64,000 nucleotides of DNA. Source: an uncultured Candidatus Saccharibacteria bacterium. GTDB lineage: Bacteria; Patescibacteriota; Minisyncoccia; Phycocordibacterales; 2-02-FULL-43-11. The translations under genes and the position numbers were made by a program. The notes beneath the pieces were generated by a model that had not been told where the DNA came from, did not search any database, and saw nothing but the letters and a program-made list of their open reading frames with translations. The DNA lies in assembly GCA_964348785.1 (NCBI GenBank), contig CAYGDO010000005.1, positions 1,188 through 65,187 of the forward strand, in the 5' to 3' direction. Positions 37,501-55,356 of this stretch are shown in pieces; the stretch's first letter is position 1, and every line of letters starts with the position of its first letter.

Positions 37501-40500
37501 ACGGAACATTTGTCGGAGGTAACGCTGGAAAATCAACAAACTCCACAGGACTATACAACACAGCAGTTGGATACAACTCTGCATTTACAAACACTACTGG
37601 AAGCTCCAACACATCTTTGGGATACAACTCACTCTTCACCAACACAGGTGACTCAAACGTAGCACTCGGTGAAAACACACTTTATCTAAACGGAACTGGT
37701 TCATACAACACAGCTGTCGGTACTCGTTCTCTATATACTAATAGTACAGGTGCCAACAACACCGCTCTTGGTTTCGGTGCTCTCTATACCAACACTGCTT
37801 CAAACAACGTAGCTCTAGGTATGCACTCTCTCTACTACAACTCATCAGGTGCTGACAATATTTCTATTGGTTATCAATCTTCATACTCAAACGACACAGG
37901 AGGAAAAAACACAGTCATTGGTACTCAAGCTCTCTACACCAACTTCTCTGGAGCTAACAACACAATCTTAGGATACAAATCAGGTTATGCCGTAGACACA
38001 GGAGCTAACAACACACTCTTAGGTTATCAAGCAGGTGACGCTATCACATCAGGATCAAACAACATTGTCTTAGGTTATGACATTGATGCTCCTTCAAACA
38101 CAGACAGCAATCAATTGAACATCGGTAACATAATCTTTGGCACAAACATTAGTGGAACTGGCACCACTATTTCAACAGGTAACATTGGTATCGGCACAAC
38201 ATCACCAGGTCAAAAACTTTCAGTTGCTGGAGATATTCTTGGAAACAATATTATTGGTCAATACTTTACTGCGACATCGACTACTGCGACGAGTACGTTT
38301 GCGGGGGGTATCACAGGACCAGGAAGTTTTACTGTTCAATCAGACAGTGGGAGATTGGGTGTGGGCACGACTTCACCTTCAGCTTTACTTTCTGTTAACG
38401 CTTCCGCCGGTAATGATTCCTTCTCTATCGGCTCATCAACTTCTTCATATTTCATTGTTAACAAGAGTGGGAATGTGGGAGTGGGTACGACTTCGCCTTC
38501 TGCAAAATTGTCAGTTAAAGGTGATGGGACAACAACGGGCAGAGCCTTTGCCATTTCAAATTCATCTGGAGCAGAAAAGTTTACTGTATTAGACAGTGGA
38601 AACGTCAGACTTGGCGTTGGTGCTAATGCTGCTGCTACAAAATTGGAGATAATCGGTTCGGATTCTTCATCTTCAGTGGGGACAGAGGATGAGATTAAAT
38701 TGATTCGCCCACTATTATCATTGGAATATCCAAAAGTTGCATCATTTAAACTTGGTAAATGGGACCCTGGCAATTTAACTTCAAGTTCTAGACTCGATAT
38801 AGCATTAAAAAATGGAGCCAACGGAACTTATGATGCTGATACGACAGTTATGTCTTTTCTTTCAAGCGGTAATATTGGTATTGGTACAACATCTCCATAT
38901 GCAATGCTTTCTGTTGCTGGTGAAGTCGTGGCTAAAAATTTCACTGCCACATCTACAACTGCTACATCAACATTCGCTGGCGGAATAACTGGACCAAATA
39001 GTTTTACTGTTCAGTCTTCAAGTGGAAGGTTGGGTGTTGGCACATCTTCTCCGTGGACATCATTAGCTATTGAAGCGACAGCAGGTCAAGATTCTCTTGC
39101 TATTGGTTCCTCAACTTCTTCATATTTTGTGGTTGATAAGAGTGGAAATGTGGGTATTGGAACTAGTAGTCCTATGTATAAACTTAATTTGAAAACAGCT
39201 ACAGCTAATTATGGTTTTATGCATACTGATGGTTCTGTAGAGTTAGGTACTTTCGTATGGAATACAGGCAGTCTTCCGGGTGGATGGATTGGAACAAAAT
39301 CTAATCATGATTTACATCTTTTCACTAATAATAGTAATCCTTTAGCAACTCTTGATACTTCTGGAGATTTTGGTATAGGTACCACTTCTCCATACGCAAA
39401 ATTATCCGTAACAAACACAGGCACAGAACCATCATTTTTGGTGGAAGACTCAACTTCTCCAGACTCAACACCGTTTATTATTGATGCTTCAGGACAAATG
39501 GCACTTGGGACTTCAACCACTCTTGAAAAGTTTACTCAGTCGGGTGGGTATTTCCGACTTACTTCTGGAGCAACCAATGGTGATGGGGTAAATAATGGAA
39601 CGTATTTTACTGATTCAACTGGTAATAATGAACTTATGCAAGCAACAGGGGGTAAGCCAACTTATTCATCAGGATATAAAGTTACTCCAGCAGGAACAGC
39701 GGCCACTATTCAATTAAATACCGCCACTGCTTTTAATTGGTATATACCAACTGGATTAAGCGCAGGCTCAACATCTGGTGATTTAACTGGAATAACTACA
39801 AATACAATGGTGTTTAACAGTTCAGGAAGATTGGGTATTGGCACCACTACGCCATATGCCAGACTTTCTATAAACGGAGCTTCAACTGGAACAGACAATT
39901 TATTTTTGGTAGCCACTTCTACCGCTTCTGCCACCTCAACCGCATTCATCATTGATTCAAACGGAAAAGTGGGAGTTGGTACAACTTCTCCTTATGCACA
40001 ACTTTCAGTTCAAGGAATAATCGCAGGACAAAGTTTTAATGCTGATAATGCTTCCGCTACCAGTACTTTTGCTGGAGGTTTCAATGTTGGTAACGGTTCA
40101 ATATTGTATGATTGGAATTCAGGCACAACTTCTATTCCTTATCTTGAAATTGGTGCACAAAATTTTGCCGCTGATTCTGGTATTGTCTCTTGGACTGATT
40201 TACCAATAACCTCTTCTTCTGCTAATAATTCTGTACAAAGCTACTCTGCCAACATCGGTTCGACCGAAGTTCTAACAGTCTACGGCGAAGCCGACGGATC
40301 AGGTAATTCCAAAAACCTAAGAGTCGGAATTGGTTCAACCACTCCTATGGCAAAACTTTCTGTCTCTGGTACAACAACATCATCAACAAGTTGGGCGTTT
40401 GCAGTAGCTGATGTTTCCTCATCAACCAAATTCATAATTAGAGATGACGGAGTAATAGGAGTCGCTACCACCACTCCTTGGGGACTCTTTGCAATCAATC

Positions 40501-42803: not shown

Positions 42804-43322
42804 ATGAAAAACAAACCAAACAATTATGCGTTCATAGACAGTCAGAATGTTCACAAGGGAATTAAACATCTTGGTTGGGATATAGATTGGTACAGATTTT
42901 TGGTGTATCTAAAAGAAAAATATAAAGTAAGTGCAATATATTTATTTATTGGTTTTGTGCAAGAGAATCAAAAACTATACGAATATCTTCAAAAGTGTGG
43001 CTATATATTAATTTTCAAACCAATTATATTTGATGGTGAAGGGAAAGTTAAAGGGAATTGTGATGCTGATTTAGTATTACACACTCTCTTGAAAATTAAT
43101 GAATATGAAAAAGCGGTAATTGTTACGAGCGATGGTGATTTTTACTCACTTGTTAGACATTTATATGAGCAGAAAAAACTTGAAATGGTGTTAAGTTCAT
43201 ACGTTAAGACTTGTTCAAAACTTTTAAAAAAGGAGGCAAAAGAGAAGATAAATTATATGGATAATCTTAGGAACAAAATAGGCAGAAATGAAAATGCACC
43301 GCATAAGGACGGAACCTTATGA
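42804..43322 (+). CDS. NYN-domain (LabA-like) putative RNase.
   Basis: YAFIDSQNVHKG...NCDADLVLHTL...AVIVTSDGDFYSLVRHL matches NYN/PIN-like conserved Asp positions. Confidence 0.65.
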   Translation: MKNKPNNYAFIDSQNVHKGIKHLGWDIDWYRFLVYLKEKYKVSAIYLFIGFVQENQKLYEYLQKCGYILIFKPIIFDGEGKVKGNCDADLVLHTLLKINEYEKAVIVTSDGDFYSLVRHLYEQKKLEMVLSSYVKTCSKLLKKEAKEKINYMDNLRNKIGRNENAPHKDGTL

Positions 43323-43399: not shown

Positions 43400-45610
43400 A
43401 TGAAAATCGCTTACAAAAATACGTTAGAAAATAAGGACAAAATTAAGGTCGTTATATCAAGGTCGAACCTTGATATCAAGGTTCGACCTTGGACAAAATT
43501 GATATTTTTATTATTTTTTATCTTTTGTTTTTTTGGTATTTTTAGTTTTGCTGATGCTGTCGTGGTTAATACTACAAATAAAGACACTTTAAGAAACGGC
43601 TTAGTTGGCCACTGGACCATGGACGGTAAAGACGTAGTAAGCGGAGTACTCCAAGACAAAAGTGGAAATGGAAACAGTGGTCGATTGGTAAACATTGCCA
43701 CTTCTACTTTCTATACCTTGGGCAAAATTGGTCAGGCGTTTAGGTTTAGTAAGAATCTTAGTCAATACGTTACTATTCCTGATAATTCATCTTTTGATAA
43801 CACTTCAACATTGTCATTTGGAGGTTGGTTTTATCTTGATAGTTTGGTTTCTTTTAATACCATAATATGTAAAAGGGTGGGTAGTTCTGATAATCATTCT
43901 TTTTGTGTGTTTGCCGATAGCTCTGGGAAATTAAATATTGATATTGACGGTTTTGGAGATAGATTTACTAGTACCGCAACCTTATCTCCGAAGAAATGGT
44001 ATCAATTTATGGTGGTTTATGATGGAAATTTGGTCTCAACTGAGCGCGCTAAATTGTATATCAACGGAACACTTGATAGGAGTGCTACCGAAACGAGTTC
44101 TTCAGTACCAAATTACACTTCCACCCTAAGGTTTGGTGAGTTGCAGGGAAATAGTGCAGGGTATATGGGTGGAAAGATTGATGATATTCGTATCTACAAC
44201 CGCGCTCTATCAGCTTCAGAAATTACTCAACTATATAACCAAAGCGCGGGTGACAAAATTAACTCCACTCCAAAAGGCATACCAGCGAGCGGTCTTAACT
44301 CCGGCCTCGTCGGCTGGTGGACAATGGATGGTAAAGACGTAGTCAACGGAGTACTCCAAGACAAAAGTGGAAATGGAAACACGGGAAATTTGGTAAACAT
44401 TGCCACTTCTACTTTCTATACTTTAGGTAAGATAGGTCAGGCGGGGAAGTTTGATGGGAGTGATGATGTTATCGTCGCATCTAGTGATCTTGTCGGTACA
44501 GGAGCAGATTCTATCTGCGCGTGGATTAAACCATCGGGTTGGGGTGAGGGTGGTTTCGGTAGATTGTTTGATAATAGCGTAATGTGGTTTTATTTAGTTC
44601 AGACAGGTCAATCTTTACGCTTTACATCAAACCAATCCAGTGGTTTCTATTTTGATACCACTTCAAGCAGTATCAAGCTAAACCAGTGGCAACATGTATG
44701 TGCGGTCAGAGATGCATCAGGAAGTGGTATTGTTTATATTAATGCTGTTTCTAATAATACTGGCAATACAGGCACTCCCGCAGCTGGTTCCACTTCGTAT
44801 ATAGGTAATCGCGCCGCCGGCGATAGGGCGTTTAATGGATTAATCGACGACGTTCGCATCTACAACCGTGTACTTTCCGCATCAGAAATTACTCAACTAT
44901 ACAACCAAGGAGCTGGCGACAAAGTAAACTCCACCCCCAAAGGTGTTGCAACCCAAGGTCTCAACTCCGGCCTCGTCGGCCACTGGACCATGGATGGTAA
45001 AGACGTAGTCAATGGAGTACTTCAAGATAAAAGTGGAAATGGAAACAGTGGTCAGTTGGTAAACATCGCCACCTCTACTTTCTATACCTTAGGCAAGATC
45101 GGTCAGGCGTTTAAGTTTGATGGGGTCAATGATTATGTAAATTCAAATTACAAGTTTAATTTTGGCACATCGCCTTTTGCGGTTTCGTTTTGGATTAACA
45201 CAAAAATAGCGGTTGCGTTCCGTCCCATCATTGGAGAAGTGCATAACACTCTTGCCTCTTGGACGGTTACCTTTTCTAATCTGACAACAGGCACTCTAAG
45301 TATGCAAATTTATGATGGTTCAGGAACCGATACTGCAACAACAAATGGAACAACAAAAATCAACGATGGAAAATGGCATCACATTGTAGCGTTTCGTAAT
45401 GGTTCAACACTTAATATTTATGTTGACGGGCGTTTGGAAGTTACCCCGGCAACTGACAATCAGAGAAATTATGGCACAAATGCTAATTTTGCAATGATGG
45501 CAAGAGCTGATTCGTTCCTTCCTAATGGTGGAAAATTAGACGACGTTCGTCTTTACAACCGTGTGCTTTCTGCTTCTGAAATTACACAGTTATATAATTT
45601 AGGCCGTTAA
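43400..45610 (+). CDS. Secreted/membrane-anchored protein with three tandem LamG-like (concanavalin A-like lectin/glucanase, PF13385-type) domains; paralog 1 of 4.
   Basis: An N-terminal hydrophobic signal/anchor (LIFLLFFIFCFFGIFSFADA). Three repeats each begin LVGHWTMDGKDVV..DKSGNGN.G.LVNIATSTFYT.GKIGQA.KFDG and end DD(I/V)RIYNR.LSASEITQLYNQ, the LamG_3 hallmark. The 5' coding region contains the REP palindrome. Confidence 0.8.
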   Translation: MKIAYKNTLENKDKIKVVISRSNLDIKVRPWTKLIFLLFFIFCFFGIFSFADAVVVNTTNKDTLRNGLVGHWTMDGKDVVSGVLQDKSGNGNSGRLVNIATSTFYTLGKIGQAFRFSKNLSQYVTIPDNSSFDNTSTLSFGGWFYLDSLVSFNTIICKRVGSSDNHSFCVFADSSGKLNIDIDGFGDRFTSTATLSPKKWYQFMVVYDGNLVSTERAKLYINGTLDRSATETSSSVPNYTSTLRFGELQGNSAGYMGGKIDDIRIYNRALSASEITQLYNQSAGDKINSTPKGIPASGLNSGLVGWWTMDGKDVVNGVLQDKSGNGNTGNLVNIATSTFYTLGKIGQAGKFDGSDDVIVASSDLVGTGADSICAWIKPSGWGEGGFGRLFDNSVMWFYLVQTGQSLRFTSNQSSGFYFDTTSSSIKLNQWQHVCAVRDASGSGIVYINAVSNNTGNTGTPAAGSTSYIGNRAAGDRAFNGLIDDVRIYNRVLSASEITQLYNQGAGDKVNSTPKGVATQGLNSGLVGHWTMDGKDVVNGVLQDKSGNGNSGQLVNIATSTFYTLGKIGQAFKFDGVNDYVNSNYKFNFGTSPFAVSFWINTKIAVAFRPIIGEVHNTLASWTVTFSNLTTGTLSMQIYDGSGTDTATTNGTTKINDGKWHHIVAFRNGSTLNIYVDGRLEVTPATDNQRNYGTNANFAMMARADSFLPNGGKLDDVRLYNRVLSASEITQLYNLGR
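43454..43490. repeat. REP-like nested palindrome, copy 1 (TATCAAGGTCGAACCTTGATATCAAGGTTCGACCTTG), inside the 5' coding region of the LamG gene.
   Basis: The 19-bp unit ATCAAGGTCGAACCTTGAT is followed by its reverse complement. The same element is found at 46131, 50652, 52927 (half copy) and 53617. Confidence 0.75.
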
Positions 45611-45716
45611 CCCCGTTAGAGATTTAACATCATTAAGTTTTGTAACGTAACTACTAATTAGAGTAACCCATGTATAATTTAGTAACATATAAAAAGTAAA
45701 TGAATCTCTAACGGGG
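45611..45716. repeat. 14-bp perfect inverted repeat pair (CCCCGTTAGAGATT ... AATCTCTAACGGGG) enclosing a 78-bp AT-rich segment with a TGTATAAT -10-like box, directly upstream of the GIY-YIG gene.
   Basis: Arms at 45611-45624 and 45703-45716 match exactly as reverse complements. TATAAT at 45673-45678. Confidence 0.5.
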
Positions 45717-45727
45717 TAGATAAAACT

Positions 45728-45988
45728 ATGATTTATACTTACATACTAAAAAGCGATAAAGATGGAATGTTATATACAGGTTGCACGTCAGATTTACGGA
45801 AGCGTTTTAAGGAGCATAATGCTAACAAGGTTGTTGCGACTAAATCTCGGGGGCCGTTTACTATTATCTATTACGAAGCTTGTATAGATGATCATGACGG
45901 TTTTACTAGAGAGAAATATTTGAAAACGGGTATGGGTAAAAGATATTTAAAAAATCGTTTAAAACGCTTCCTTACTCTAACGGTCTAA
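45728..45988 (+). CDS. Small GIY-YIG nuclease-superfamily protein (UPF0213/YhbQ-like).
   Basis: IYTYILKSDKDGMLYTGCTSDLRKRFKEHN matches the GIY-(10-11)-YIG motif plus conserved Arg and Glu. 86 aa. Confidence 0.75.
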   Translation: MIYTYILKSDKDGMLYTGCTSDLRKRFKEHNANKVVATKSRGPFTIIYYEACIDDHDGFTREKYLKTGMGKRYLKNRLKRFLTLTV

Positions 45989-46036
45989 AGGAAGATAAGA
46001 AGATAAATCAAAAATGAAAAATCAAATATCATAAAT

Positions 46037-48322
46037 ATGAAGATAAAAAAGCCAATTTTAATAAATAATGAAATAATGAAAATTACTTACAAAAATACGT
46101 TAGAAAATAAGGACAAAATCAATGTCGTCATATCAAGGTCGAACCTTGATATCAAGGTTCGACCTTGGACAAATTTGATATTTTTATTATTTTTTATCTT
46201 TTGTTTTTTGGGTGTTTTTCAAAAAGCAGAAGCTGTAATCGTAACTCCTGGAGTTGGTTTTGGTTCTACCACATCATCACTTTATAACGGACTTGTTGGC
46301 TGGTGGACTTTTGATAATCAAGACATGTTAAACGGCGCGGTAAGAGATAAAAGTGGAAATGGAAATACTGGGAATTTGGTAAACATTGCCACATCCACTT
46401 TTTACACTCAAGGAAAATTGGGTCAAGCGTTTAAGTTTGATGGGGTGAATGATTATGTGCAAATAAATAACGGTGCAAATGCGCTGAGCGGTTTAAATAA
46501 CACAGCTCTGTCAGTTTGGTTTAATGGCACAGCAAATGGTTTTCCAGCTGTAGTTAATAGCGCGGTATCAGATTTAACGTGGGGGATCGAGTTTAATAAT
46601 AGTGGGACATCTCTGTTTTTGTGGCGAGGTGGTTCGTACCGAACATATACAATCAGTATAAATCTTTTAGATAAAAAATGGCATCATGTTGTTGTTAATT
46701 ACACAGGGAGTGGTGATAGTGCTAGTTTATATGTTGATGGACAACTACAGTCTAGTTTCACTGGGTCTATTGCTGGTATGCGCACAGAAACAGGTAATAT
46801 TGAGATTGGTAGATACCGCACGGGTATAAATTATTTTAAAGGTTCGATTGATGACGTCCGCATCTACAACCGCGCTCTCTCCGCCTCCGAAATCTCCCAA
46901 CTATACAAACAAGGTCAAGCTATAGTTGGAGCCACTCAAAATCCAAAATCAACTGTTAGTTCACTTGATTCAGGGCTGGTAGGTTATTGGACTTTCAACA
47001 ATCAAGATATGTTAAACGGCGCGGTAAAAGACAAAAGTGGAAATGGGAACACAGGAAATTTGGTGAACATTGCCACTTCCACTTTTTACACGCGAGGCAA
47101 ATTAGGACAAGGGTTTAAGTTTGATGGGGCTAATGATTATATGACTACTGCCAGCACTTTTACTCCAACCACAACTTTCACGGTTTCTGCTTGGGTATAC
47201 CCTATTCGTTATGGTATCGTATCTTTTAGGGCTGCATTCGCTACCAGAACCTACGATAGTACTGATAACTTTGGTGTTTGGTTAAGAGATAACGGCTTAT
47301 ATTATATTCAGGTGCACGGTAACGGTACTGATGTCGCTGCGAATACTGTTGCTTATTCAGATAAGAAATGGGACCATATAATTTTGGTTAAAAATACTAG
47401 TAGTCCATATGTAAAATTTTACGTTAATGGAGTATTGAGATATTCTTCCACTTCCAATCCTGACACACTAACCAGCAGGCAACTTGACGTGGGAAGTTAT
47501 TCGAACACAACTGGTCCGTTTTTGGGTACAATTGATGATGTCCGCATCTACAACCGTGCCCTATCCGACTTTGAAGTCACCCAACTCTACAAACAAGGTC
47601 AAGTCACAATCGGCGCCACTCAAAATCCAAAACCAACTATCAATTCACTTGATTCAGGATTGGTAGGTTATTGGACATTTAATAATCAAGACATGCTAAA
47701 TGGTGCGGTGAAAGATAAAAGTGGAAATGGCAACACGGGGAGTTTGATAAACATCGCCACTTCCACTTTCTATACGCAAGGGAAATTGGGGCAAGGGTTT
47801 AAGTTTGATGGGGCGGATGATTATGTGAATCTAGGTTCAGCCGCTATTTTAACTGCTGGCAGTCCGTTTAGTATAAGCTGGTGGGAAAAAATAAATAGCA
47901 ATACAAATAATTTTCCATCTCGTTTTAACTTAAAAATGAATGGTACTAGCAATTATTTTGCTGTGGCTCGGGCTAAATCTTCAGCCAGTTATCAAACAAT
48001 TACGTGGGGTAGGGCACCAAATACGAATTTAGGTATTAGATCATCTGCTGCACCTTCTGTTGCTTCAAGTGTCAAAATTTGGAGGCATTTTGTTATTACA
48101 GGAAGTGATCCCAATAGTACTACTCCTGGAGATTATTCTATATATGCGGATGGTGTTTCGTATGCGACAATTCAAGCTGGTACTTTTTCTACAGATACAA
48201 GAAATAGTATTGGGAAAAGTGGTGTGGACAATGGTGCTGATGCTGTCATTGACGATGTCCGTGTATATAATCGTGCCCTCTCTGCCACTGAAATTCGTCA
48301 GTTGTATAATCAGGGAAGATAA
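46037..48322 (+). CDS. Three-LamG-domain secreted protein, paralog 2. An alternative start is the ATG at 46076.
   Basis: The N-terminus from the second Met, MKITYKNTLENKDKINVVISRSNLDIKVRPWTNLIFLLFFIFCF, is near-identical to paralog 1 including the REP. Three LamG modules each end DDVRIYNRALS(A/D).E(I/V).QLY.QG. Confidence 0.8.
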   Translation: MKIKKPILINNEIMKITYKNTLENKDKINVVISRSNLDIKVRPWTNLIFLLFFIFCFLGVFQKAEAVIVTPGVGFGSTTSSLYNGLVGWWTFDNQDMLNGAVRDKSGNGNTGNLVNIATSTFYTQGKLGQAFKFDGVNDYVQINNGANALSGLNNTALSVWFNGTANGFPAVVNSAVSDLTWGIEFNNSGTSLFLWRGGSYRTYTISINLLDKKWHHVVVNYTGSGDSASLYVDGQLQSSFTGSIAGMRTETGNIEIGRYRTGINYFKGSIDDVRIYNRALSASEISQLYKQGQAIVGATQNPKSTVSSLDSGLVGYWTFNNQDMLNGAVKDKSGNGNTGNLVNIATSTFYTRGKLGQGFKFDGANDYMTTASTFTPTTTFTVSAWVYPIRYGIVSFRAAFATRTYDSTDNFGVWLRDNGLYYIQVHGNGTDVAANTVAYSDKKWDHIILVKNTSSPYVKFYVNGVLRYSSTSNPDTLTSRQLDVGSYSNTTGPFLGTIDDVRIYNRALSDFEVTQLYKQGQVTIGATQNPKPTINSLDSGLVGYWTFNNQDMLNGAVKDKSGNGNTGSLINIATSTFYTQGKLGQGFKFDGADDYVNLGSAAILTAGSPFSISWWEKINSNTNNFPSRFNLKMNGTSNYFAVARAKSSASYQTITWGRAPNTNLGIRSSAAPSVASSVKIWRHFVITGSDPNSTTPGDYSIYADGVSYATIQAGTFSTDTRNSIGKSGVDNGADAVIDDVRVYNRALSATEIRQLYNQGR
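46131..46167. repeat. REP-like nested palindrome, copy 2 (inside the paralog 2 5' coding region).
   Basis: Same sequence as copy 1. Confidence 0.75.
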
Positions 48323-48334
48323 AAAGATAAATCA

Positions 48335-48352
48335 ATCCGCCAGCTGGCGGAT
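48335..48352. repeat. 18-bp perfect palindrome ATCCGCCAGCTGGCGGAT just after the paralog 2 stop; possible terminator or protein-binding site.
   Basis: Perfect dyad symmetry and GC-rich relative to surroundings, flanked by A/T-rich sequence. Confidence 0.4.
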
Positions 48353-48431
48353 AAAAATCAAATATTAAAAATATGAAGATAAAAATGACCAGTTTTCAAT
48401 TTAAGAAAGACAAAATGCAAAAAATAAAAAA

Positions 48432-50537
48432 ATGAAAGATAAATTGAAAAACAAAAAAATATTTACTAAATTTTACAAAGTCACTTTTATCGTTTTTTGT
48501 TTTTTTGGTGTTTTTAATTTTGCTAACGCATTGATTATAAATTCCAATACTCTAAACGCCGGAGGGGATACTCTTAAAAACGGTCTCGTCGGCCATTGGA
48601 CATTTGACGGAGCGGATTTAGTTTCAAATGTGGTGGATAAAAGTGGAAACGGAAATACCGGTAATATGGTAAATATGGCCACAAGTTCCGCAAAGGCGGG
48701 AGGTGTTTTGGGTCAAGCGCTCAAGTTTGATGGGGTGAATGATTATATACGTGTCCCGCATTCTACTTCGTACAAAAGCAACAATCAGGCGATTTCTTTT
48801 TGGATGTACCCCTTACAAATACCTTCTTCTGGCTATGATGGTGTATTAGGTATGATAACAAACGACTCGAATGCGTTTGAGGTTTTTATGGATAACAGCA
48901 CTAGCGTTTTGTCAGCGGGTAGTTATCCTTGGCAATTAACTTATACTATTCCTAAAAAAAATGTTTGGTACCATGTATACGTTGAGACTGTTAGCGGTGT
49001 AGGTAAAATTTATATTAACGGGGTGTTGCAGGATACTGGAAATGTGGCTTACGGAGGTGCGTCAAATACTGCCGATTTTTATATTGGAAGTCGTAACACA
49101 ACTTATTTTTTTCCAGGATATTTAGATGACGTCCGCGTCTACAACCGTGCTCTCTCTGCTTCTGAAATAAAACAACAATACAACCAAGGTGGAAGTAAAT
49201 TAAATTCTCAAACCTTGAACGCCGGAGGCGACATGCTTAAGCAAGGATTGGTCAGTTGGTGGACATTTGACGGCGCTGATTTAGTTTCAAATGTGGTGGA
49301 CAGGGGTAGTGCGGGTAATACTGGGAATTTGGTCAATATGTCCACTTCAACAGCAAAAGTGCCAGGAGCACTTGGCCAAGCTTTGAAGTTTGATGGAAGT
49401 GATGATTATGTTGATATTGCAGACGTTGATGCTTCTCTAGCATCAAACTCGTCAATTTCTGTTTGGATTAATCCGCGCAGTGTCTCAGTAAGTCACAGGA
49501 TATTTGGAGGGCGTACTAACTCAGCTCCCGTTGTAGGTATTTATCCTTCGCCATATGGAATTATTGCGAGTGGTGCAACACAAGGTAATCAGAGGACTGG
49601 TTCAACAAGTACTATCAAATTAAACGCTTGGAATCATCTTGTGGTTACATATGGTGCAACAAGCATACCGACTATTTATGTAAATGGCGTAGAGGTGACT
49701 TATACTGCTTCAACTTATTGGGGTGCTACAAATTCAACTATAGGAAAGGCGGGAGGAAATACTTTTCAAGGGATCATTGATGATGTTCGTCTTTATAGCC
49801 GCGTTCTTACTTCTAAAGAAATTAAACAACTATACAACCAAGGCGGTAGCAAAATAACTTCTCAAACCCCAAATGCCGGAGGCGATAGTTTAAAATCTGG
49901 TCTTGTTGCTCATTGGACTTTTGATGGAGCCGATTTGGTTTCAAACGTAGCTGACAAAAGTGGTAATGGAAACAATGGTAATTTGGTAGGATTTACTTCT
50001 ACAACTACTGCAAAAACGGGAGGTGTTTTGGGTCAGGCGTTGAAGTTTGATGGGGTGGATGATTATGTATCGATTCCAAATAACCTATCCTCTTATTTTA
50101 CTAATCAAGAAGCAACTTTTAATGTATGGTTAAAAAAAATGCAGCACACTCCTTCTTCATCAGGTAATACAGGATCTTGGTATTTTAATGCTTCAGATGC
50201 TAACAATCATTATGTTTGGACAGACGGATCTATTTATGACGGTACTTTTAAAACAACCAGAGATAATGTCGGTGCCGGTCTTATAAGTAATAGAAAAAAT
50301 TGGCATATGGTAACCATTACTAGAAAAGCCGGAGCTAATGGTTGGAATTATTATCAAAATGGGCGACTCGCATATTCTACAAGCGGTGGAACTTGGGATT
50401 TTGCTACTTCAAATTATAAAATTGGTGAGTCGGCAAGTAACACTTATAATTTTTTTGGTGTGATGGATGATGTGAGATTATACAACCGTGTGCTTTCTGC
50501 TTCTGAAATCCAAAAGCTTTATAATATGGGAAGATAA
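48432..50537 (+). CDS. Three-LamG-domain secreted protein, paralog 3 (no REP in the 5' end).
   Basis: Signal peptide-like FTKFYKVTFIVFCFFGVFNFANA. Junction blocks LVGHWTFDGADLVSNVVDKSGNGNTGN and DDVRVYNRALSASEIKQQYNQGGSK repeated three times. Confidence 0.8.
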   Translation: MKDKLKNKKIFTKFYKVTFIVFCFFGVFNFANALIINSNTLNAGGDTLKNGLVGHWTFDGADLVSNVVDKSGNGNTGNMVNMATSSAKAGGVLGQALKFDGVNDYIRVPHSTSYKSNNQAISFWMYPLQIPSSGYDGVLGMITNDSNAFEVFMDNSTSVLSAGSYPWQLTYTIPKKNVWYHVYVETVSGVGKIYINGVLQDTGNVAYGGASNTADFYIGSRNTTYFFPGYLDDVRVYNRALSASEIKQQYNQGGSKLNSQTLNAGGDMLKQGLVSWWTFDGADLVSNVVDRGSAGNTGNLVNMSTSTAKVPGALGQALKFDGSDDYVDIADVDASLASNSSISVWINPRSVSVSHRIFGGRTNSAPVVGIYPSPYGIIASGATQGNQRTGSTSTIKLNAWNHLVVTYGATSIPTIYVNGVEVTYTASTYWGATNSTIGKAGGNTFQGIIDDVRLYSRVLTSKEIKQLYNQGGSKITSQTPNAGGDSLKSGLVAHWTFDGADLVSNVADKSGNGNNGNLVGFTSTTTAKTGGVLGQALKFDGVDDYVSIPNNLSSYFTNQEATFNVWLKKMQHTPSSSGNTGSWYFNASDANNHYVWTDGSIYDGTFKTTRDNVGAGLISNRKNWHMVTITRKAGANGWNYYQNGRLAYSTSGGTWDFATSNYKIGESASNTYNFFGVMDDVRLYNRVLSASEIQKLYNMGR

Positions 50538-50609
50538 AAATAAATTAAATATTAAAAAAACCAAAGAACATCCGTAGACATCCGACATCTACAGAATCAA
50601 AAATAAAAG

Positions 50610-52910
50610 ATGATCAACTTTCAAGAAAAACAAATAAAAAACAAAAAATTTTATCAAGGTCGAACCTTGATATCAAGGTTCGACCTTGATAAAAAGAAGA
50701 GCAATGTTTACACGATTGCGATTTTCTCTTTTTTATTTTTTGGCGTTTTTAATTTTGCTAACGCTATTACGGTTGGAGTTTCTCCAAACGCCGGAGGCGA
50801 CACTCTTAAAAACGGTCTTGTTGGCCACTGGACCTTCGACGGCGCAGATTTAGTTTCAAACGTAGCTGACAAAAGTGGAAATGGAAACAATGGAAATATG
50901 TCAGGATTCACTTCTACCAGTTCTGCAAAAGTTGTGGGGAAGTTAGGTCAGGCGTTGAAGTTTGATGGTGTGAATGATTATGTAAATAATCCTACAAATA
51001 TAGTTTTGACGGGAGATTACGCTATTTCTACCTGGTTTTTTAGTGAAAATGCTATCAATACAAACAAGAGGCTTATTAGTATTGGTGATTCTACTAATTC
51101 AATTTACGCCCATATTTCTACTAATCCATCCGCAGGGAATGCTATTGGACTTAAAAGTGTTCATTGTATACAGAACACTTTATCCGGAGGACTTTCTGTC
51201 GCTCGCTATGCTTTGGCTTCGTCAAATGCGTGGCATCACGTCATATGTAATTACAGTGGCGGGGTTCTGAATAGCATGTATGTTGATGGTGTAATAACAG
51301 CACTTGATGCTGGTAACGGAACATGGGCTAATGATGCTCATACTGGAATTAAGTTTGGTACAAGAGGTAGTTTGGCCACATTTTGGGCAGGAAGGTTGGA
51401 TGATACTCGCATTTACAGTCGTACCCTTTCCGCCTCAGAAATCCAAAAACTATACAATCAGGGCGGTAGCAAATTAAATTCTCAAACTCCAAACGCCGGT
51501 GGCGACACTCTAAAATCCGGCCTAGTCGGCCACTGGACTTTTGATGGAGCGGATTTGGTTTCAAACGTGGTGGACAAAAGTGGGAATGGAAATCATGGAA
51601 ATATGTCAGGATTCACTTCTACCAGTTCTGCAAAAGTTGTGGGGAAGTTAGGTCAGGCGTTAAAATTTGATGGGGTAGATGATTATATTAATGCAGGAGA
51701 TATAGAAAGTATTGATACTTCTACGGCTTTGTCAGGATGTGCATGGGTTAAACATACTACCATAACAAATGATGATGGTATTTTTGCTAAAATTACTGGG
51801 GGGAGTGGCGATGGATTTATTTTCTTTAGAGATGATGTGGGTGCAACAAGTGGGCGTACCGATGGGTATAACATTTATTTTGCTGATAGTGGTGATACAG
51901 ATACTGTGCGTATTGAAAGTGCCACAAATGCTTCACCTCTTAATAAATGGACACAAGTTTGTTTTACTTTCCAAACAGCTACAGCAAACGGTTTACATTT
52001 ATATGTAAATGGAGTTGAGGATGCTAATAGTCCTGTAAGTACAGCAAGTATTGGAGCTATCAATGCGGGAACGGCCATGCTTTCTATCGGAGAAAGATTG
52101 GATTTTTCTAACCCTTTTAATGGAACAATAGACGACGTCCGCATCTACAACCGCGCCCTTTCTGCCTCTGAAGTTAAACAACTGTACAATCTAGGTGGCA
52201 GTAAATTAAATTCTCAAATTCCAAACGCAGGAGGCGACACTCTAAAATCTGGCCTAGTCGGCCACTGGACCTTCGACGGCGCAGATTTAGTTTCAAACGT
52301 AACCGATAAGAGTGGAAATGGAAACAATGGAAATATGTCTGGATTTACCTCAACAAGTTCTGCAAAAGTTGTGGGGAAGTTGGGTCAGGCGCTTAAGTTT
52401 GATGGGGTGAATGATTATGTGAAGACTGGCCTCATCAATCCAAATTCTAATATTATTACTCTTACATATTGGGCAAAAAGACCTGTTAGTACAAGTGGTT
52501 TAGTAGAAATAGAACAAAGTGCAAATTTTAACAGTGTAGATCATTCCTTTTTATCCAATCCAGATGGTTCAAACAATAGATTTTCGGCAGCCATTCACGG
52601 TACGGGAGCCAGTTATAGGGCTGAGTATATTACTCTTCCACAGGCGAATACTTGGAATCATTACGCCATTGTCTTTGACCACAACGTTGCAAATTGTGAT
52701 ATTCGCATATACTTAAATGGAACTGAAAGTGCTACGACTATAACTAATGCAAACTGTGGCGGAGCTGCCGATTTTAGGACTGATAATATTTATATGATGT
52801 CGAGAGGTGGTTCAACTTTATATCAAAATGGCATCATGGACGATGTTCGCATCTACAACCGCACCCTATCCGCCACCGAAATTAAACAACTTTATAATTT
52901 GGGAAAGTAA
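50610..52910 (+). CDS. Three-LamG-domain secreted protein, paralog 4.
   Basis: Same junction blocks, with variable cores. Its 5' end carries a REP copy in a different reading frame (FYQGRTLISRFDLD). Confidence 0.8.
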   Translation: MINFQEKQIKNKKFYQGRTLISRFDLDKKKSNVYTIAIFSFLFFGVFNFANAITVGVSPNAGGDTLKNGLVGHWTFDGADLVSNVADKSGNGNNGNMSGFTSTSSAKVVGKLGQALKFDGVNDYVNNPTNIVLTGDYAISTWFFSENAINTNKRLISIGDSTNSIYAHISTNPSAGNAIGLKSVHCIQNTLSGGLSVARYALASSNAWHHVICNYSGGVLNSMYVDGVITALDAGNGTWANDAHTGIKFGTRGSLATFWAGRLDDTRIYSRTLSASEIQKLYNQGGSKLNSQTPNAGGDTLKSGLVGHWTFDGADLVSNVVDKSGNGNHGNMSGFTSTSSAKVVGKLGQALKFDGVDDYINAGDIESIDTSTALSGCAWVKHTTITNDDGIFAKITGGSGDGFIFFRDDVGATSGRTDGYNIYFADSGDTDTVRIESATNASPLNKWTQVCFTFQTATANGLHLYVNGVEDANSPVSTASIGAINAGTAMLSIGERLDFSNPFNGTIDDVRIYNRALSASEVKQLYNLGGSKLNSQIPNAGGDTLKSGLVGHWTFDGADLVSNVTDKSGNGNNGNMSGFTSTSSAKVVGKLGQALKFDGVNDYVKTGLINPNSNIITLTYWAKRPVSTSGLVEIEQSANFNSVDHSFLSNPDGSNNRFSAAIHGTGASYRAEYITLPQANTWNHYAIVFDHNVANCDIRIYLNGTESATTITNANCGGAADFRTDNIYMMSRGGSTLYQNGIMDDVRIYNRTLSATEIKQLYNLGK
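50652..50690. repeat. REP-like nested palindrome, copy 3 (inside the paralog 4 5' coding region, in a different frame from copies 1 and 2).
   Basis: TATCAAGGTCGAACCTTGATATCAAGGTTCGACCTTGAT. Confidence 0.75.
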
Positions 52911-52926
52911 AAATAGATTTATGTTT

Positions 52927-53657
52927 TATCAAGGTCGAACCTTGATAAAATTAAGTCGAAAAGGGCTTGTTGTTAAGCCATTCTGTGGTATGACTTTCAA
53001 AATCTTTAAAATTTTCAAAATATTGAGGCAAGGAATCTTTTTGTATTATTTTATTTTCAATTCTTTTTTCGCCAAGAAAATCGGAATAACTTGAATACCT
53101 ATATTTTTTTAAAAACAGCTCTGCTTGTTTTGGATTTTTTATACCTTTTTCTTTCCATTCTGGTTCAGTGAGTTTAATTGGATTTAAGTGAACGTATGAT
53201 ATTAAATATTTAAGATATCTATCTGTATCAAGATGAGTATCTTTAAATTTTCCTTGAAATAGGGCACCACTTCTTGCGTATTTTTTATTGAAATACATTG
53301 TATAGGCGGTAAGTAACTTTTGCATAAATTTACTAATGCCGTTTTCAATTTTTTCATGGAGTAGAAGATGAAAATGATTTGGCATGAGGCAGTAAGCCCC
53401 AATCTCAACTATTTTTTCTTTTATTTCTAGATTGAGAATATCATTTAGATTTTTTCCTTGGATTTGTATATGAACTTTATTTTTATTGTTGCATATATAT
53501 AAAAGAGAAAGAAACCTCTCATGATCTTTTTTGTCCAGAAAAATCTTTCTTTTTTCTGTGCCCCTGTTGTAAATATGGTAAAATTCTTCAAGAGAAATGT
53601 TTCGCATGACAAAATAATATCAAGGTCGAACCTTGATATCAAGGTTCGACCTTGATA
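52927..53657 (-). mobile_element. REP-RAYT unit: a REP-associated tyrosine transposase gene flanked by REP palindromes (half copy at 52927-52947, full copy at 53617-53657).
   Basis: The gene sits exactly between two copies of the palindrome that is dispersed in the neighbouring LamG genes. This is the classic tnpA_REP/REPIN arrangement. Confidence 0.7.
52951..53607 (-). CDS. IS200/IS605-type Y1 (HuH) transposase, RAYT/TnpA_REP-like.
   Basis: HuH motif in CLMPNHFHLLL; catalytic Tyr context LISYVHLNPIK; N-terminus YHIYNRGTEKRKIF. 218 aa. Confidence 0.8.
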   Translation of the reverse strand: MRNISLEEFYHIYNRGTEKRKIFLDKKDHERFLSLLYICNNKNKVHIQIQGKNLNDILNLEIKEKIVEIGAYCLMPNHFHLLLHEKIENGISKFMQKLLTAYTMYFNKKYARSGALFQGKFKDTHLDTDRYLKYLISYVHLNPIKLTEPEWKEKGIKNPKQAELFLKKYRYSSYSDFLGEKRIENKIIQKDSLPQYFENFKDFESHTTEWLNNKPFST

Positions 53658-53752: not shown

Positions 53753-54775
53753 ATGAAAAAAATTAAAGTAGCGGTAAATGGTTGCGGAAGAATTGGAAGA
53801 GCTTTTATTAAGTTGGCTTTTAAGAGAGAAGAAATTGAAGTGGTGGCGGTAAATGATTTGGGTGATATAAATAATATCGCTTATCTTTTAAAGTACGACT
53901 CTGCTTATGGAAAAAGTGATTTAGATGTTTTGGTCTCAAAAACTGGGAAGGAGCTGATTATAAATGGCAAGGAAGTTTTATTTTTTTCAGAAAAAGAGCC
54001 TGGCAATTTACCTTGGGGCAAATTGGATATTGATGTGGTTATTGAATCAACGGGATTTTTTACTTCATTTGAAGGGGCAGGGGAACATATAAAAGCGGGG
54101 GCTAAAAAAGTAATCATTACAGCTCCAGCTAAAGATGATCCAAGAAGTGAAAAGGAAGCAACAATTCTTTTGGGAGTTAATGAGGAAAAAAGAAAAGACG
54201 CGGTGATTATTTCTAATGCTTCTTGTACTACAAATGCTTCAAGTCCTATTATTGCAATTTTGGATGAGACGGTTGGTATTGAAAAAGCATTACTCAATAC
54301 TGTGCACGCTTATACCGCTAGTCAAAGTATTGTTGATGGGCCAAATAAAAAAGATTGGCGAGAGGGGAGAGCTGGAGGACAAAATATCGTTCCTTCATCA
54401 ACAGGTGCTGCAAAAGCTGTAGCAAAAGCGTTTCCAAAAATGGAGGGGATTTTTGATGGCATTTCTATTCGTGTGCCAGTTGTTGTCGGCTCTATTGCAG
54501 ATATTACTTTTATTTCAAAGAGAAATACTTCAGTTGAAGAAATAAATGAAATATTAGAAAAAGCTTCAACGGATGATAGATGGCAAGGCATTTTTACTGT
54601 GACAAAAGAACAGTTAACGTCCAGAGATATTATCGGGAGTACTTTTGCTTCAATGGCGGATTTATCTTTTACTAAAGTCGTTGGTGGCAATTTGGTGAAA
54701 GTTCTTGCTTGGTATGACAATGAAATGGGATATACAAATACGTTAGTGGAGCAAGTATTGAGATTGGAGTTATAA
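53753..54775 (+). CDS. gap: Glyceraldehyde-3-phosphate dehydrogenase, type I.
   Basis: NAD-binding VAVNGCGRIGRAF; active-site SNASCTTNA; typical 340-aa length. Confidence 0.92.
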   Translation: MKKIKVAVNGCGRIGRAFIKLAFKREEIEVVAVNDLGDINNIAYLLKYDSAYGKSDLDVLVSKTGKELIINGKEVLFFSEKEPGNLPWGKLDIDVVIESTGFFTSFEGAGEHIKAGAKKVIITAPAKDDPRSEKEATILLGVNEEKRKDAVIISNASCTTNASSPIIAILDETVGIEKALLNTVHAYTASQSIVDGPNKKDWREGRAGGQNIVPSSTGAAKAVAKAFPKMEGIFDGISIRVPVVVGSIADITFISKRNTSVEEINEILEKASTDDRWQGIFTVTKEQLTSRDIIGSTFASMADLSFTKVVGGNLVKVLAWYDNEMGYTNTLVEQVLRLEL

Positions 54776-54783
54776 TTGAAGGG

Positions 54784-55356
54784 ATGGGGATTTTTTCAAA
54801 AAATAATAAATTTTTTAATAAAAAAGCTTTCACTTTAGTGGAACTTTTGGTTGTTATATCAATAATCGGAATTCTATCATCAACCGTTTTTGCTAGTTTA
54901 AGTAGCGCAAGAAGTAGAGCGAGAGACGCAATAAGAAAATCTGATTTAGCGCAAATCGCTAAAGCTTTTAGGTTGTATTATGAGCAAAATGGAACTTACA
55001 GAATTCCTAATACGGGTTGGGTTGATGACACAGGTTATGCAACGGGGGTAGGACACTTTAATTATGATTATGACGCTGCTGGGCCAGTCGTCTCTGTTTC
55101 TCAAGGTTTGATAAATGCGGGATTGTTGCCTAAAGATATAAGAGATCCTTCTGGTTTGGCGTCGGGTTTTGGTAACATAGGTGCTGCCTATATGTTCTAT
55201 GCCCCTCTGATTGAACAATTTACTCTGTGGACGTCTTTGGAAAACCCTTCTACTTCTGATACTGATACTTTAAGTAATTGTTCTAGAAATGAATATGATG
55301 GATATAGTATTGCTTATCCAGCAAACAGAAGGACTAATTATTGTGTAAGTAACTAA
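54784..55356 (+). CDS. Type IV pilin-like/pseudopilin protein with an atypical long leader.
   Basis: N-terminal N-methylation-type motif FTLVELLVVISIIGILSS, preceded by a 23-residue leader ending KKA (Ala rather than Gly at -1). Confidence 0.6.
   Translation: MGIFSKNNKFFNKKAFTLVELLVVISIIGILSSTVFASLSSARSRARDAIRKSDLAQIAKAFRLYYEQNGTYRIPNTGWVDDTGYATGVGHFNYDYDAAGPVVSVSQGLINAGLLPKDIRDPSGLASGFGNIGAAYMFYAPLIEQFTLWTSLENPSTSDTDTLSNCSRNEYDGYSIAYPANRRTNYCVSN

Follow-up and report, generated by a model that had tools for sequence, protein, structure and literature searches.

A repetitive extragenic palindrome (REP) and a gene for a REP-associated tyrosine transposase (RAYT) were found next to four LamG genes in a stretch of 64,000 nucleotides (the window; contig CAYGDO010000005.1 of assembly GCA_964348785.1) from an uncultured Candidatus Saccharibacteria bacterium. 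In our judgement the locus is probably a REP-RAYT module ("REPtron") of a family that extends throughout the Patescibacteria, in which the REP doublets inside the LamG open reading frames (ORFs) are tolerated, translated passengers, and no designed switching device is present. The initial annotation of this DNA had already read the locus as a REP-RAYT element; this reading was borne out by a protein of the RAYT/TnpA_REP type with a cognate flanking hairpin and by the recurrence of the arrangement at 12 of 12 homologous loci.

The RAYT-like gene

The RAYT-like gene (52951-53607, reverse strand), of which one copy is present in the 64 kb, encodes a predicted class-2 Y1 HUH nuclease/transposase of 218 aa. 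The protein contains the stretches PNHFHLLL and SYVHLNP; HFH occupies residues 78-80 and YVHLNP, with the catalytic tyrosine, residues 138-143. From HFHLLL and YVHLNP the ORF had been proposed to be a Y1/HuH transposase, and a profile search agreed, with Pfam Y1_Tnp (PF01797) scoring 41.5 bits against a cut-off of 23. Across 33 aligned homologues Y138-V-H-L-N-P143 was invariant. The pattern Y---NP is the signature of class 2 (TnpA_REP), whereas Y-x3-Q-type motifs occur in class 1 (IS200) and class 3 (Quentin et al., PMC6006769); the tyrosine motif of class 2 is present here, because YVHLNP fits Y---NP. A model of the protein was built with AlphaFold (AF2) on the 33 homologues (pLDDT 87.5). Its top match among solved structures was E. 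coli TnpA_REP with the REP hairpin bound (4ER8; E = 5e-4, TM 0.66 on the target), and the TnpA proteins of IS608 and ISDra2 ranked below 4ER8 in this fold search. Motifs and modelled fold together identify the 218-aa product as a predicted single-tyrosine HUH enzyme of class 2, of the RAYT/TnpA_REP type.

The hairpin repeat in the window

The repeat unit is a 19-mer, ATCAAGGTCGAACCTTGAT, composed of an 8-bp stem and the 3-nt loop CGA; its reverse complement carries the loop TCG. With up to three mismatches allowed, 16 strand-matches were obtained, which correspond to nine units at five sites between 43.4 and 53.7 kb, versus a chance expectation of 0.01 matches from shuffles of the window; the earlier observation of a palindrome repeated around the ORF and in its neighbours is therefore well founded. 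The five sites span 10.3 kb, and none is located in the other 53 kb. A looser search of the 64 kb with a 13-nt core revealed no further copy (nine observed, about one expected).

Both flanks of the RAYT gene carry the repeat. A perfect doublet of a CGA-loop and a TCG-loop unit with zero spacer and 25-nt arms (53619-53656) is situated 12 nt upstream of the start codon, and a single unit (52928-52946) lies between the convergent stops of LamG gene 4 (52910) and the RAYT gene (52951). The palindrome followed by its reverse complement had been described for both sides of the ORF, which is correct for the 5' side but not for the 3' side with its single unit. The 19-nt hairpin, which brackets the gene as 5' doublet and 3' single unit, is the predicted cognate REP of the 218-aa protein. 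Beyond the flanks, three more sites (six units), all at most 10 kb away, are doublets inside LamG gene 1 (43456-43493; codons 19-32, ISRSNLDIKVRPW), gene 2 (46132-46169) and gene 4 (50653-50690; codons 15-27, YQGRTLISRFDLD), the last one being perfect and preceding the hydrophobic core of the signal peptide. Their starts had previously been given as 43454, 46131 and 50652, which is 1-2 nt off. The second unit of the doublets in genes 1 and 2 shows two differences (TTGAT to TTGGA), by which TGAT becomes TGGA and an in-frame TGA is lost; both substitutions are identical in the two genes.

Doublets outnumber single units in the window (four sites versus one), and all four have the same order of units, CGA then TCG, head-to-head and without spacer. 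Folded as single-stranded DNA, the single unit gave -5.8 kcal/mol (z about -5 against shuffles) and the perfect doublet at 53619-53656 gave -22.2 kcal/mol (z = -12.9); the range over the four doublets was -17 to -22 kcal/mol. The flanks of the hairpins are T-rich on the 5' side and A-rich on the 3' side in the window, and variable in other genomes; in three independent doublet copies they lengthen the palindrome to 23-25 nt per arm. The designation "REPIN-type" (REP doublet forming hairpin) is overstated: zero-spacer doublets make up four of the five sites, yet such doublets are rare and the copy numbers observed are tiny. A 36-nt version of it, with the last two bases dropped so that the variant of genes 1 and 2 would fit, was found at one locus in the JGI metagenomes, which belongs to another RAYT.

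A promoter-like sequence, TTGATA-17 nt-TATTAT with an upstream TG (53614-53642, reverse strand), covers the centre and one edge of the upstream doublet and faces the RAYT gene. It is a consensus match only, at 10 of 12 positions; 7 nt separate the end of its -10 element from the RAYT ATG, and an mRNA from this box would be leaderless or nearly leaderless. TATAAT-like boxes, likewise consensus matches only, are present between REP and ATG at four homologous loci (L015, L026, L035 and L036). Overall, promoter-like matches in the window were no commoner than in shuffles (41 versus 36.8).

Homologous loci in other Patescibacteria

A homologue search with the ORF scored 8,000 candidates, 7,939 of them at E ≤ 1e-5. 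Named sources include Paceibacterota, Taylorbacteria, Yanofskybacteria and Minisyncoccia; where a name is given, the proteins are called "transposase" or "putative transposase", in one case "hypothetical protein", and many are encoded on contigs of 1-2 kb. Twelve further loci from Saccharibacteria, Nomurabacteria, Parcubacteria and others were inspected, and cognate hairpins were present on both flanks in all of them. An identical 19-mer is often common to RAYT proteins which are 44-73% identical with one another. The stems vary by lineage yet remain complementary (ATCAAGGT, CTACAAGGT, ACGGAGGT, ACAAAGGT, ACCAGGAC); both halves are altered in CTACAAGGT...ACCTTGTAG, ACGGAGGT...ACCTCCGT and ACAAAGGT...ACCTTTGT, and in locus L030, ACCAGGAC...GTCCTGGT. 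Changes on both sides were counted at six of nine stem pairs in 28 hairpins, a biased count since the hairpins were selected by pairing. The stems thus appear to co-vary with the lineage of the RAYT protein.

The upstream doublet is also present in L015, L039 and L042, and in many homologues the 3' REP provides the stop codon (..KVEP*). Neighbourhoods of the RAYT gene differ between lineages; the homologue P0111 was found on 24 contigs, and the three places shown share neighbouring genes. Plasmid and phage collections yielded only RAYT relatives of less than 33% identity. The exact 19-mer occurs in 29 stretches of species-representative genomes, 27 of which are from Patescibacteria (Saccharibacteria, Nomura-, Adler-, Vogel- and Doudnabacteria, Paceibacterota); by our arithmetic, which assumes equal base frequencies, about four chance matches would be expected in the 596-Gb collection. 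Apparent insertions or deletions of REPs among L036, L037 and L038 were rejected, since the differences are due to a scaffold gap of Ns. The RAYT homologues in L033 and L035 adjoin genes resembling those for pseudopilins and type II secretion systems.

The RAYT ORF itself also contains a REP site. In the window this site is decayed (53440-53463, reverse strand; codons 49-56, ATCCAAGGAAAAAATCTAAATGAT, translated as IQGKNLND), and exact or near-exact copies near codon 50 were found in L015, L025, L026, L031, L035 and L039. The position is fixed across the family, at about codons 50-56 ahead of the HUH motif, and depending on loop orientation the site reads QGRTL or QGSTL, in 36 + 24 = 60 of the 120 best homologues. 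The internal copy of L030 carries the hairpin sequence of the L030 type, having changed along with the flanks. Such a fixed internal REP suggests a cis-acting role, which could be, for example, autoregulation.

The cassette and the gene 4 doublet as insertions or deletions

A related genome is represented by L044, a 3.9-kb Logan contig with the order LamG fragment, LamG (P0134) and GAPDH. P0134 is 43% identical to LamG gene 4, and the GAPDH gene has 67% nucleotide identity to 53753-54723 of the window. The distance from the LamG stop to the GAPDH start is 116 nt in L044 versus 842 nt in the window, and neither a Y1 gene nor a hairpin was found in the interval of L044. In the window a RAYT cassette of about 750 bp lies between the last LamG gene and GAPDH, at a site where the syntenic relative has nothing. 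The leader of P0134, MKIKMTNFQFKK..., is in frame and free of REPs: its N-terminus is MKIKMTNFQFKKDKMQKSKIKYQIYFLQNFKKIILFSFFTFGVFNFANA, compared with MINFQEKQIKNKKF + doublet YQGRTLISRFDLD + KKKSNVYTIAIFSFLFFGVFNFANA in gene 4. The lysine-rich leader is thus in frame in both, the doublet being extra in gene 4. Because L044 passes from LamG to GAPDH without RAYT or REP and has an in-frame, REP-free leader, the cassette and the gene 4 doublet are insertions or deletions. In the sister strain L042 the RAYT is 83% identical, and the upstream doublet and downstream single unit are kept. Between its RAYT gene and the convergent LamG 3' end, L042 (720-830) contains a 75-nt pseudo-fragment of a RAYT C-terminus (..YFENFKDFETHTAEWLNYNN..), followed by a variant REP, TATACAAAGGTCGAACCTTTGTATA; this may be what is left of a previous RAYT, or of another one, at this locus.

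LamG genes and translation of the doublets

The four LamG neighbours, all on the forward strand, encode proteins with three Laminin_G_3 domains: gene 1 (43400-45610; 736 aa, with signal peptide), gene 2 (46037-48322; 761 aa from 46037, with the start homologous to that of gene 1 at 46076), gene 3 (48432-50537; 701 aa, no REP) and gene 4 (50610-52910; 766 aa). Three of the four ORFs (genes 1, 2 and 4) have doublets in their 5' ends. The two reading frames quoted in the initial annotation (VISRSNLDIKVRPW and YQGRTLISRFDLD) were correct, and its statement that conservation is at the level of DNA, not of protein, agrees with the copies lying within the LamG ORFs as drawn, in two frames. Only two frames of the unit are open, because one frame (ATC AAG GTC GAA CCT TGA) holds a stop codon. 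The frame used in gene 4 is the sole frame which is open through a perfect doublet. In the frame of genes 1 and 2 the second unit would cause a stop, and both genes carry exactly the change from TGA to TGG by which it is removed. No in-frame start follows the doublet in gene 4; besides ATG 50610 the only candidate is a TTG within the doublet (50667). For genes 1 and 2 the sole alternative start is a TTG (43499; 46175) at the first hydrophobic codon. Genes of the window have no Shine-Dalgarno sequences and A-rich leaders, as is the case upstream of the proposed LamG ATGs. From the proposed starts, n-regions of 32-33 residues with a net charge of +4 to +6 are obtained, followed by the hydrophobic core and an AxA site. 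On these grounds translation of the LamG doublets appears likely.

A tentative possibility is that the doublets are non-coding, that LamG transcripts or starts begin at or after the palindromes, and that the REPs are 5'-leader elements, e.g., an RNA hairpin for stability or translation, or an operator bound by the RAYT. Di Nocera et al. hold that most N-terminal REPs are in fact extragenic, due to mis-called starts (PMC3733652). The n-regions of most LamG homologues comprise only 2-13 residues, and the homologous leader of gene 3 is a separate, out-of-frame upstream ORF (uORF) of 20 codons, which renders the coding status of the leader insecure. In addition, 38 nt is not a multiple of three, and a simple in-frame insertion needs a unit of 39 or 42 nt or a later insertion or deletion. 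The in-frame TTG within the gene 4 doublet is preceded by AAGGT and, like the TTG codons of genes 1 and 2, would offer a start. Non-coding doublets are opposed by the frame which is open through all three of them, including the stop-removing change in genes 1 and 2, by the signal peptide without charged n-region that a TTG start would leave in these two genes, by the homology of the gene 4 leader to the in-frame N-terminus of P0134, and by the absence in this genome of any Shine-Dalgarno use that would favour an internal start.

The uORF, MKIKMTSFQFKKDKMQKIKK* (48373-48435), and the gene 3 start overlap in ATGA. Homology to this uORF is seen in the in-frame N-terminus of P0134 and at the beginning of the long gene 2 ORF (ATGAAGATAAAAA at 46037). 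Frame changes by slippage are conceivable, because the LamG leaders are full of A6-A7 runs. A role of the doublet as LamG promoter was rejected, as transcripts from the forward-strand matches would begin within the hydrophobic core and lack a start codon; in a consensus scan, no productive promoter directed into any LamG gene was found.

When the 120 best homologues of gene 4 were compared, gene 4 itself was the only one with a REP peptide backed by its DNA. The peptide QGSTL is present in the LamG proteins P0174 and P0184; in P0184, the one whose DNA was read, no REP is contained in the DNA. Six proteins were returned when the first 116 aa of gene 1 were used as query, none of which had a REP peptide. 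REPs at LamG 5' ends are therefore a feature of this locus, not of the LamG family.

Probable gene conversion in the first two LamG genes

The 5' module of gene 1 (144 nt; 43400-43543, forward strand) is 94.4% identical to 46076-46219 (forward strand) of gene 2, the partner tract having been delimited by pairwise alignment with sliding windows; there are eight differences in the first 144 nt. Other 144-nt windows of the two genes had a mean identity of 0.552 (standard deviation 0.082, maximum 0.75), and the tract, with 0.944, is 4.8 standard deviations above this mean. Overall, genes 1 and 2 share 42% protein identity and 58% aligned DNA identity. The tract opens with the start codon and closes where the hydrophobic core ends; the doublet occupies roughly its middle, leaving 56 nt on the left side and 50 nt on the right. 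As judged from the alignment, it is a clear candidate for a gene-conversion or module-copy event, which would also explain the identical two substitutions in both genes.

It had been suggested that RAYT-mediated recombination, or swapping of promoters or N-termini, takes place among the surface-protein genes. The shared 144-nt tract is in keeping with this proposal, but nothing ties the RAYT to the tract, no productive promoter was found to lead into a LamG gene, and REPs are not general at LamG 5' ends. In its full form, the proposal is that nicking by the RAYT at leader doublets drives recombination or cassette exchange among tandem LamG paralogues, as programmed surface variation; we consider this unlikely. 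In its favour are the centring of the tract on the doublet, the location of all five REP sites within 10.3 kb of the RAYT, and the pseudo-fragment with variant REP in L042, which suggests past recombination at the locus. However, a single tract was found, for which ordinary gene conversion between tandem paralogues suffices; gene 3 is without REP, gene 4 has no mosaic boundary at its REP, and its 120 best homologues are devoid of DNA-backed REPs apart from gene 4. Swapping of N-termini by the RAYT thus rests on one conversion tract and is an unproven hypothesis of low probability.

Proposed origin of the doublets

For the REP-RAYT module with passenger doublets, the following course of events is proposed by analogy with E. 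coli TnpA_REP and IS200/IS605. The enzyme would bind the hairpin in single-stranded DNA, cut at its foot and rejoin the ends, and occasionally a REP or REP doublet would be copied by the RAYT to a nearby site. At least two such events would have put the 38-nt doublet into the lysine-rich leader, once in gene 4 and once in either gene 1 or gene 2; the copy common to these last two genes would be due to gene conversion. The target leader would encode the n-region of the signal peptide, where 13 or 14 added residues should be harmless, because the leader is cleaved off, whereas an insertion elsewhere in a LamG gene would be lost. Insertions could survive in the leader whether they are translated or not, because this segment is removed with the signal peptide. 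The doublets are most likely tolerated and translated passengers, as far as the analogy holds.

Besides the short n-regions, the gene 3 leader and the 38-nt length mentioned above, several results speak against this interpretation. The equivalog family REP_Tyr_transpos of NCBIfam (NF047646) gave 45.9 bits, which is under its cut-off of 80; by this score the 218-aa protein is a putative distant relative of the proteobacterial enzyme and no equivalog. A phmmer sequence search of the PDB gave no match for the ORF, and a search of the PDB with the family profile gave marginal matches to ISDra2 TnpA and 4ER8. The tetranucleotides GTAG or CGTC were not found at the foot of the hairpin. Finally, the copy number observed is very low, with at most seven exact units per species-representative genome.

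Copies inside other genes

About half of the exact 19-mers in other Patescibacteria are located deep inside long ORFs. Identified by eye, these host ORFs encode leucyl-tRNA synthetase (LeuRS; four genomes, two sites), topoisomerase I (TopA), NAD-ligase (LigA) and SMC, and furthermore ATP synthase beta (AtpD) and gamma (AtpG), MurA, MurB, asparagine synthase, a reverse transcriptase and a phage capsid protein. In LeuRS, the exact 19-mer occurs in the same orientation and at the same codon (..TFKISRSNLDVKVFTTRPDT) in L010 (1095, reverse strand) and L027 (5919), which are from a Nomurabacterium and a Saccharibacterium, respectively; identity in the adjoining 300 nt to either side is only 67-73%. 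By our arithmetic, identity at 19 of 19 positions would have a probability of about 0.001 under neutral decay. Candidate causes of the shared copy are selection, gene transfer, a targeting hot spot or conversion from a master copy. REPs at the second LeuRS site were found in L002 and L023. In L009 (4936) a REP in ATP synthase beta encodes NQGRTLI within a conserved beta-hairpin; we take this segment to be equal in length to NGNERLV of the E. coli protein, hence there would be no net insertion. A scan of viral contigs gave two matches, both in the same phage major-capsid-like gene (..EQAFNQGSTLMETP..; exact 19-mer at L040 8833 and L041 1882, IMG/VR contigs). These contigs could be from phages of the candidate phyla radiation (CPR) with an acquired host REP.

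In-frame intragenic REPs had been called unusual in the initial annotation, which is overstated. Intragenic REPs, their excess at ORF N-termini, the bias towards replication and repair genes and the caveat of mis-called starts have already been published (PMC3733652), and in-frame REP insertions into RAYT genes are likewise on record (PMC6006769). Since the intragenic copies match the published picture (PMC3733652), little of the claimed unusualness is left.

A more far-reaching interpretation is that the RAYT/REP of Patescibacteria is a clade-wide domesticated system, with the hairpin kept by selection inside genes (at the fixed codon of its own ORF, and at the same LeuRS codon in two classes), and that RAYT nicking of leader doublets drives gene conversion among the tandem LamG adhesin paralogues. 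This is, in our opinion, quite unlikely; if true, it would represent a mechanism of surface variation driven by a HUH nuclease in an episymbiont.

Comparison with known systems

The closest known system is E. coli TnpA_REP with its REPs and bacterial interspersed mosaic elements (4ER8; PMC3479197), which has the single-tyrosine HUH fold of the best structural match and a gene bracketed by hairpins that are also scattered elsewhere, with one copy of the gene in the region examined. Differences are the sequence identity of about 12%, below the NCBIfam equivalog cut-off, the short hairpin with a perfect 8-bp stem, a 3-nt loop and no GTAG tag, the length of 218 aa with a C-terminal extension, the very low copy number and the Patescibacterium host. 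The REPINs of Pseudomonas fluorescens SBW25 (PMC3116915) likewise consist of two inverted REPs which form one long hairpin; here, in contrast, the spacer is zero, there are four doublets, not hundreds, and three of the four are inside ORFs. With TnpA_REP of subclass 2.4 (PMC6006769) the protein shares Y---NP and a REP inside the transposase ORF with an intact frame; however, the internal REP is N-terminal to HUH, near codon 50, at one fixed position of the family, whereas it lies between HUH and Y in subclass 2.4. Intragenic REPs and Rickettsia palindromic elements (PMC3733652) are also palindromic repeats inserted into functional genes without loss of the frame, with an excess at N-termini and in housekeeping genes such as those for replication and repair, and the doublets similarly encode about 13-30 residues. 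The Rickettsia elements differ in size (100-150 bp, versus 19-38 bp here), repeat sequence and clade, and in the present case the repeat is inserted in a signal-peptide n-region that is cleaved off.

HUH/Y1 chemistry and recognition of DNA hairpins would also be shared, according to the fold matches, with TnpA of the IS200/IS605 family (IS608, ISDra2). An autonomous insertion sequence of this type, with the hairpins as its ends and isolated hairpins as footprints or derivatives resembling miniature inverted-repeat transposable elements, is nevertheless very unlikely. The common fold, the missing cassette at the syntenic site of L044 and the many homologues on contigs of 1-2 kb, as expected if assemblies break at repeats, would fit such an element. 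But four of its own features, i.e., the class-1 Y motif (Y---Q, where Y---NP of class 2 is found), distinct left and right ends (where both flanks carry the identical hairpin), multiple copies (where 64 kb contain one) and the frequent tnpB partner, were not seen here; moreover, P0111 has the same neighbours at the three places shown on its 24 contigs, and plasmid and phage relatives are below 33% identity. That the palindrome is a host regulatory site, either the operator of a dimeric DNA-binding protein or a terminator, with the Y1 gene nearby incidentally, is hardly credible in spite of the 8-3-8 inverted-repeat geometry typical of operators, the doublets picked out by a terminator-like scan and the single unit between convergent genes, since in all lineages examined the Y1 gene is bordered by the hairpin, whose sequence changes with it, copies are inside housekeeping ORFs of other genomes, Rfam gave zero matches for the whole window, and the positions are not those of intrinsic terminators (three doublets in 5' coding ends, one between divergent genes, and a single unit without T-run).

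The element is a CPR-wide example of a known element type, not a new mechanism. Work on REP-RAYT systems has been almost confined to Proteobacteria and a small number of other cultured phyla, and in the literature searched no paper was found which connects Patescibacteria or the candidate phyla radiation with RAYT, REPIN or REP; a very large family of Patescibacteria, labelled only "transposase", has RAYT architecture. Points of interest are the untagged short hairpin with a core conserved across classes, the zero-spacer doublets, the fixed copy in the RAYT ORF and the frequent, tolerated intragenic copies. With a hairpin core so unusually conserved and often tolerated in essential genes, the system should provide a tractable case for the co-evolution of RAYT and REP in tiny genomes, and for the function of the copy inside the RAYT ORF. 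For annotation it should be kept in mind that 13-residue segments of the "SRSNLD / QGRTL" type in CPR proteins are derived from the repeat.

Neighbouring features

LamG genes 1 and 2 are separated by a stand-alone GIY-YIG ORF of 86 aa (45728-45988). Ahead of this ORF lies a perfect 15-bp inverted repeat, ACCCCGTTAGAGATT / AATCTCTAACGGGGT (45610-45624 and 45703-45717), the first arm of which starts on the last base of the gene 1 stop codon; the motif CTCTAACGG recurs at the 3' end of the ORF. The region 45610-45990 looks like a separate small mobile cassette. Elsewhere, LamG homologues have been called as fusions with GIY-YIG (PF01541) or 23S-rRNA-IVP (PF05635) domains. GC-richer hairpins which are unrelated to the REP and have no T-runs follow the stops of LamG genes 2 and 3 (48335-48352, ATCCGCCAGCTGGCGGAT; 50571-50595, TCCGTAGACATCCGACATCTACGGA); they are probably transcript-end structures. 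The locus is surrounded by a surface-protein cluster, which comprises a 4735-aa ORF with C-terminal surface Ig-like and Peptidase_S74 domains (28575-42782), an NYN-domain ORF (42804-43322) and, after GAPDH, a pilin-like N_methyl protein (54784-55356).

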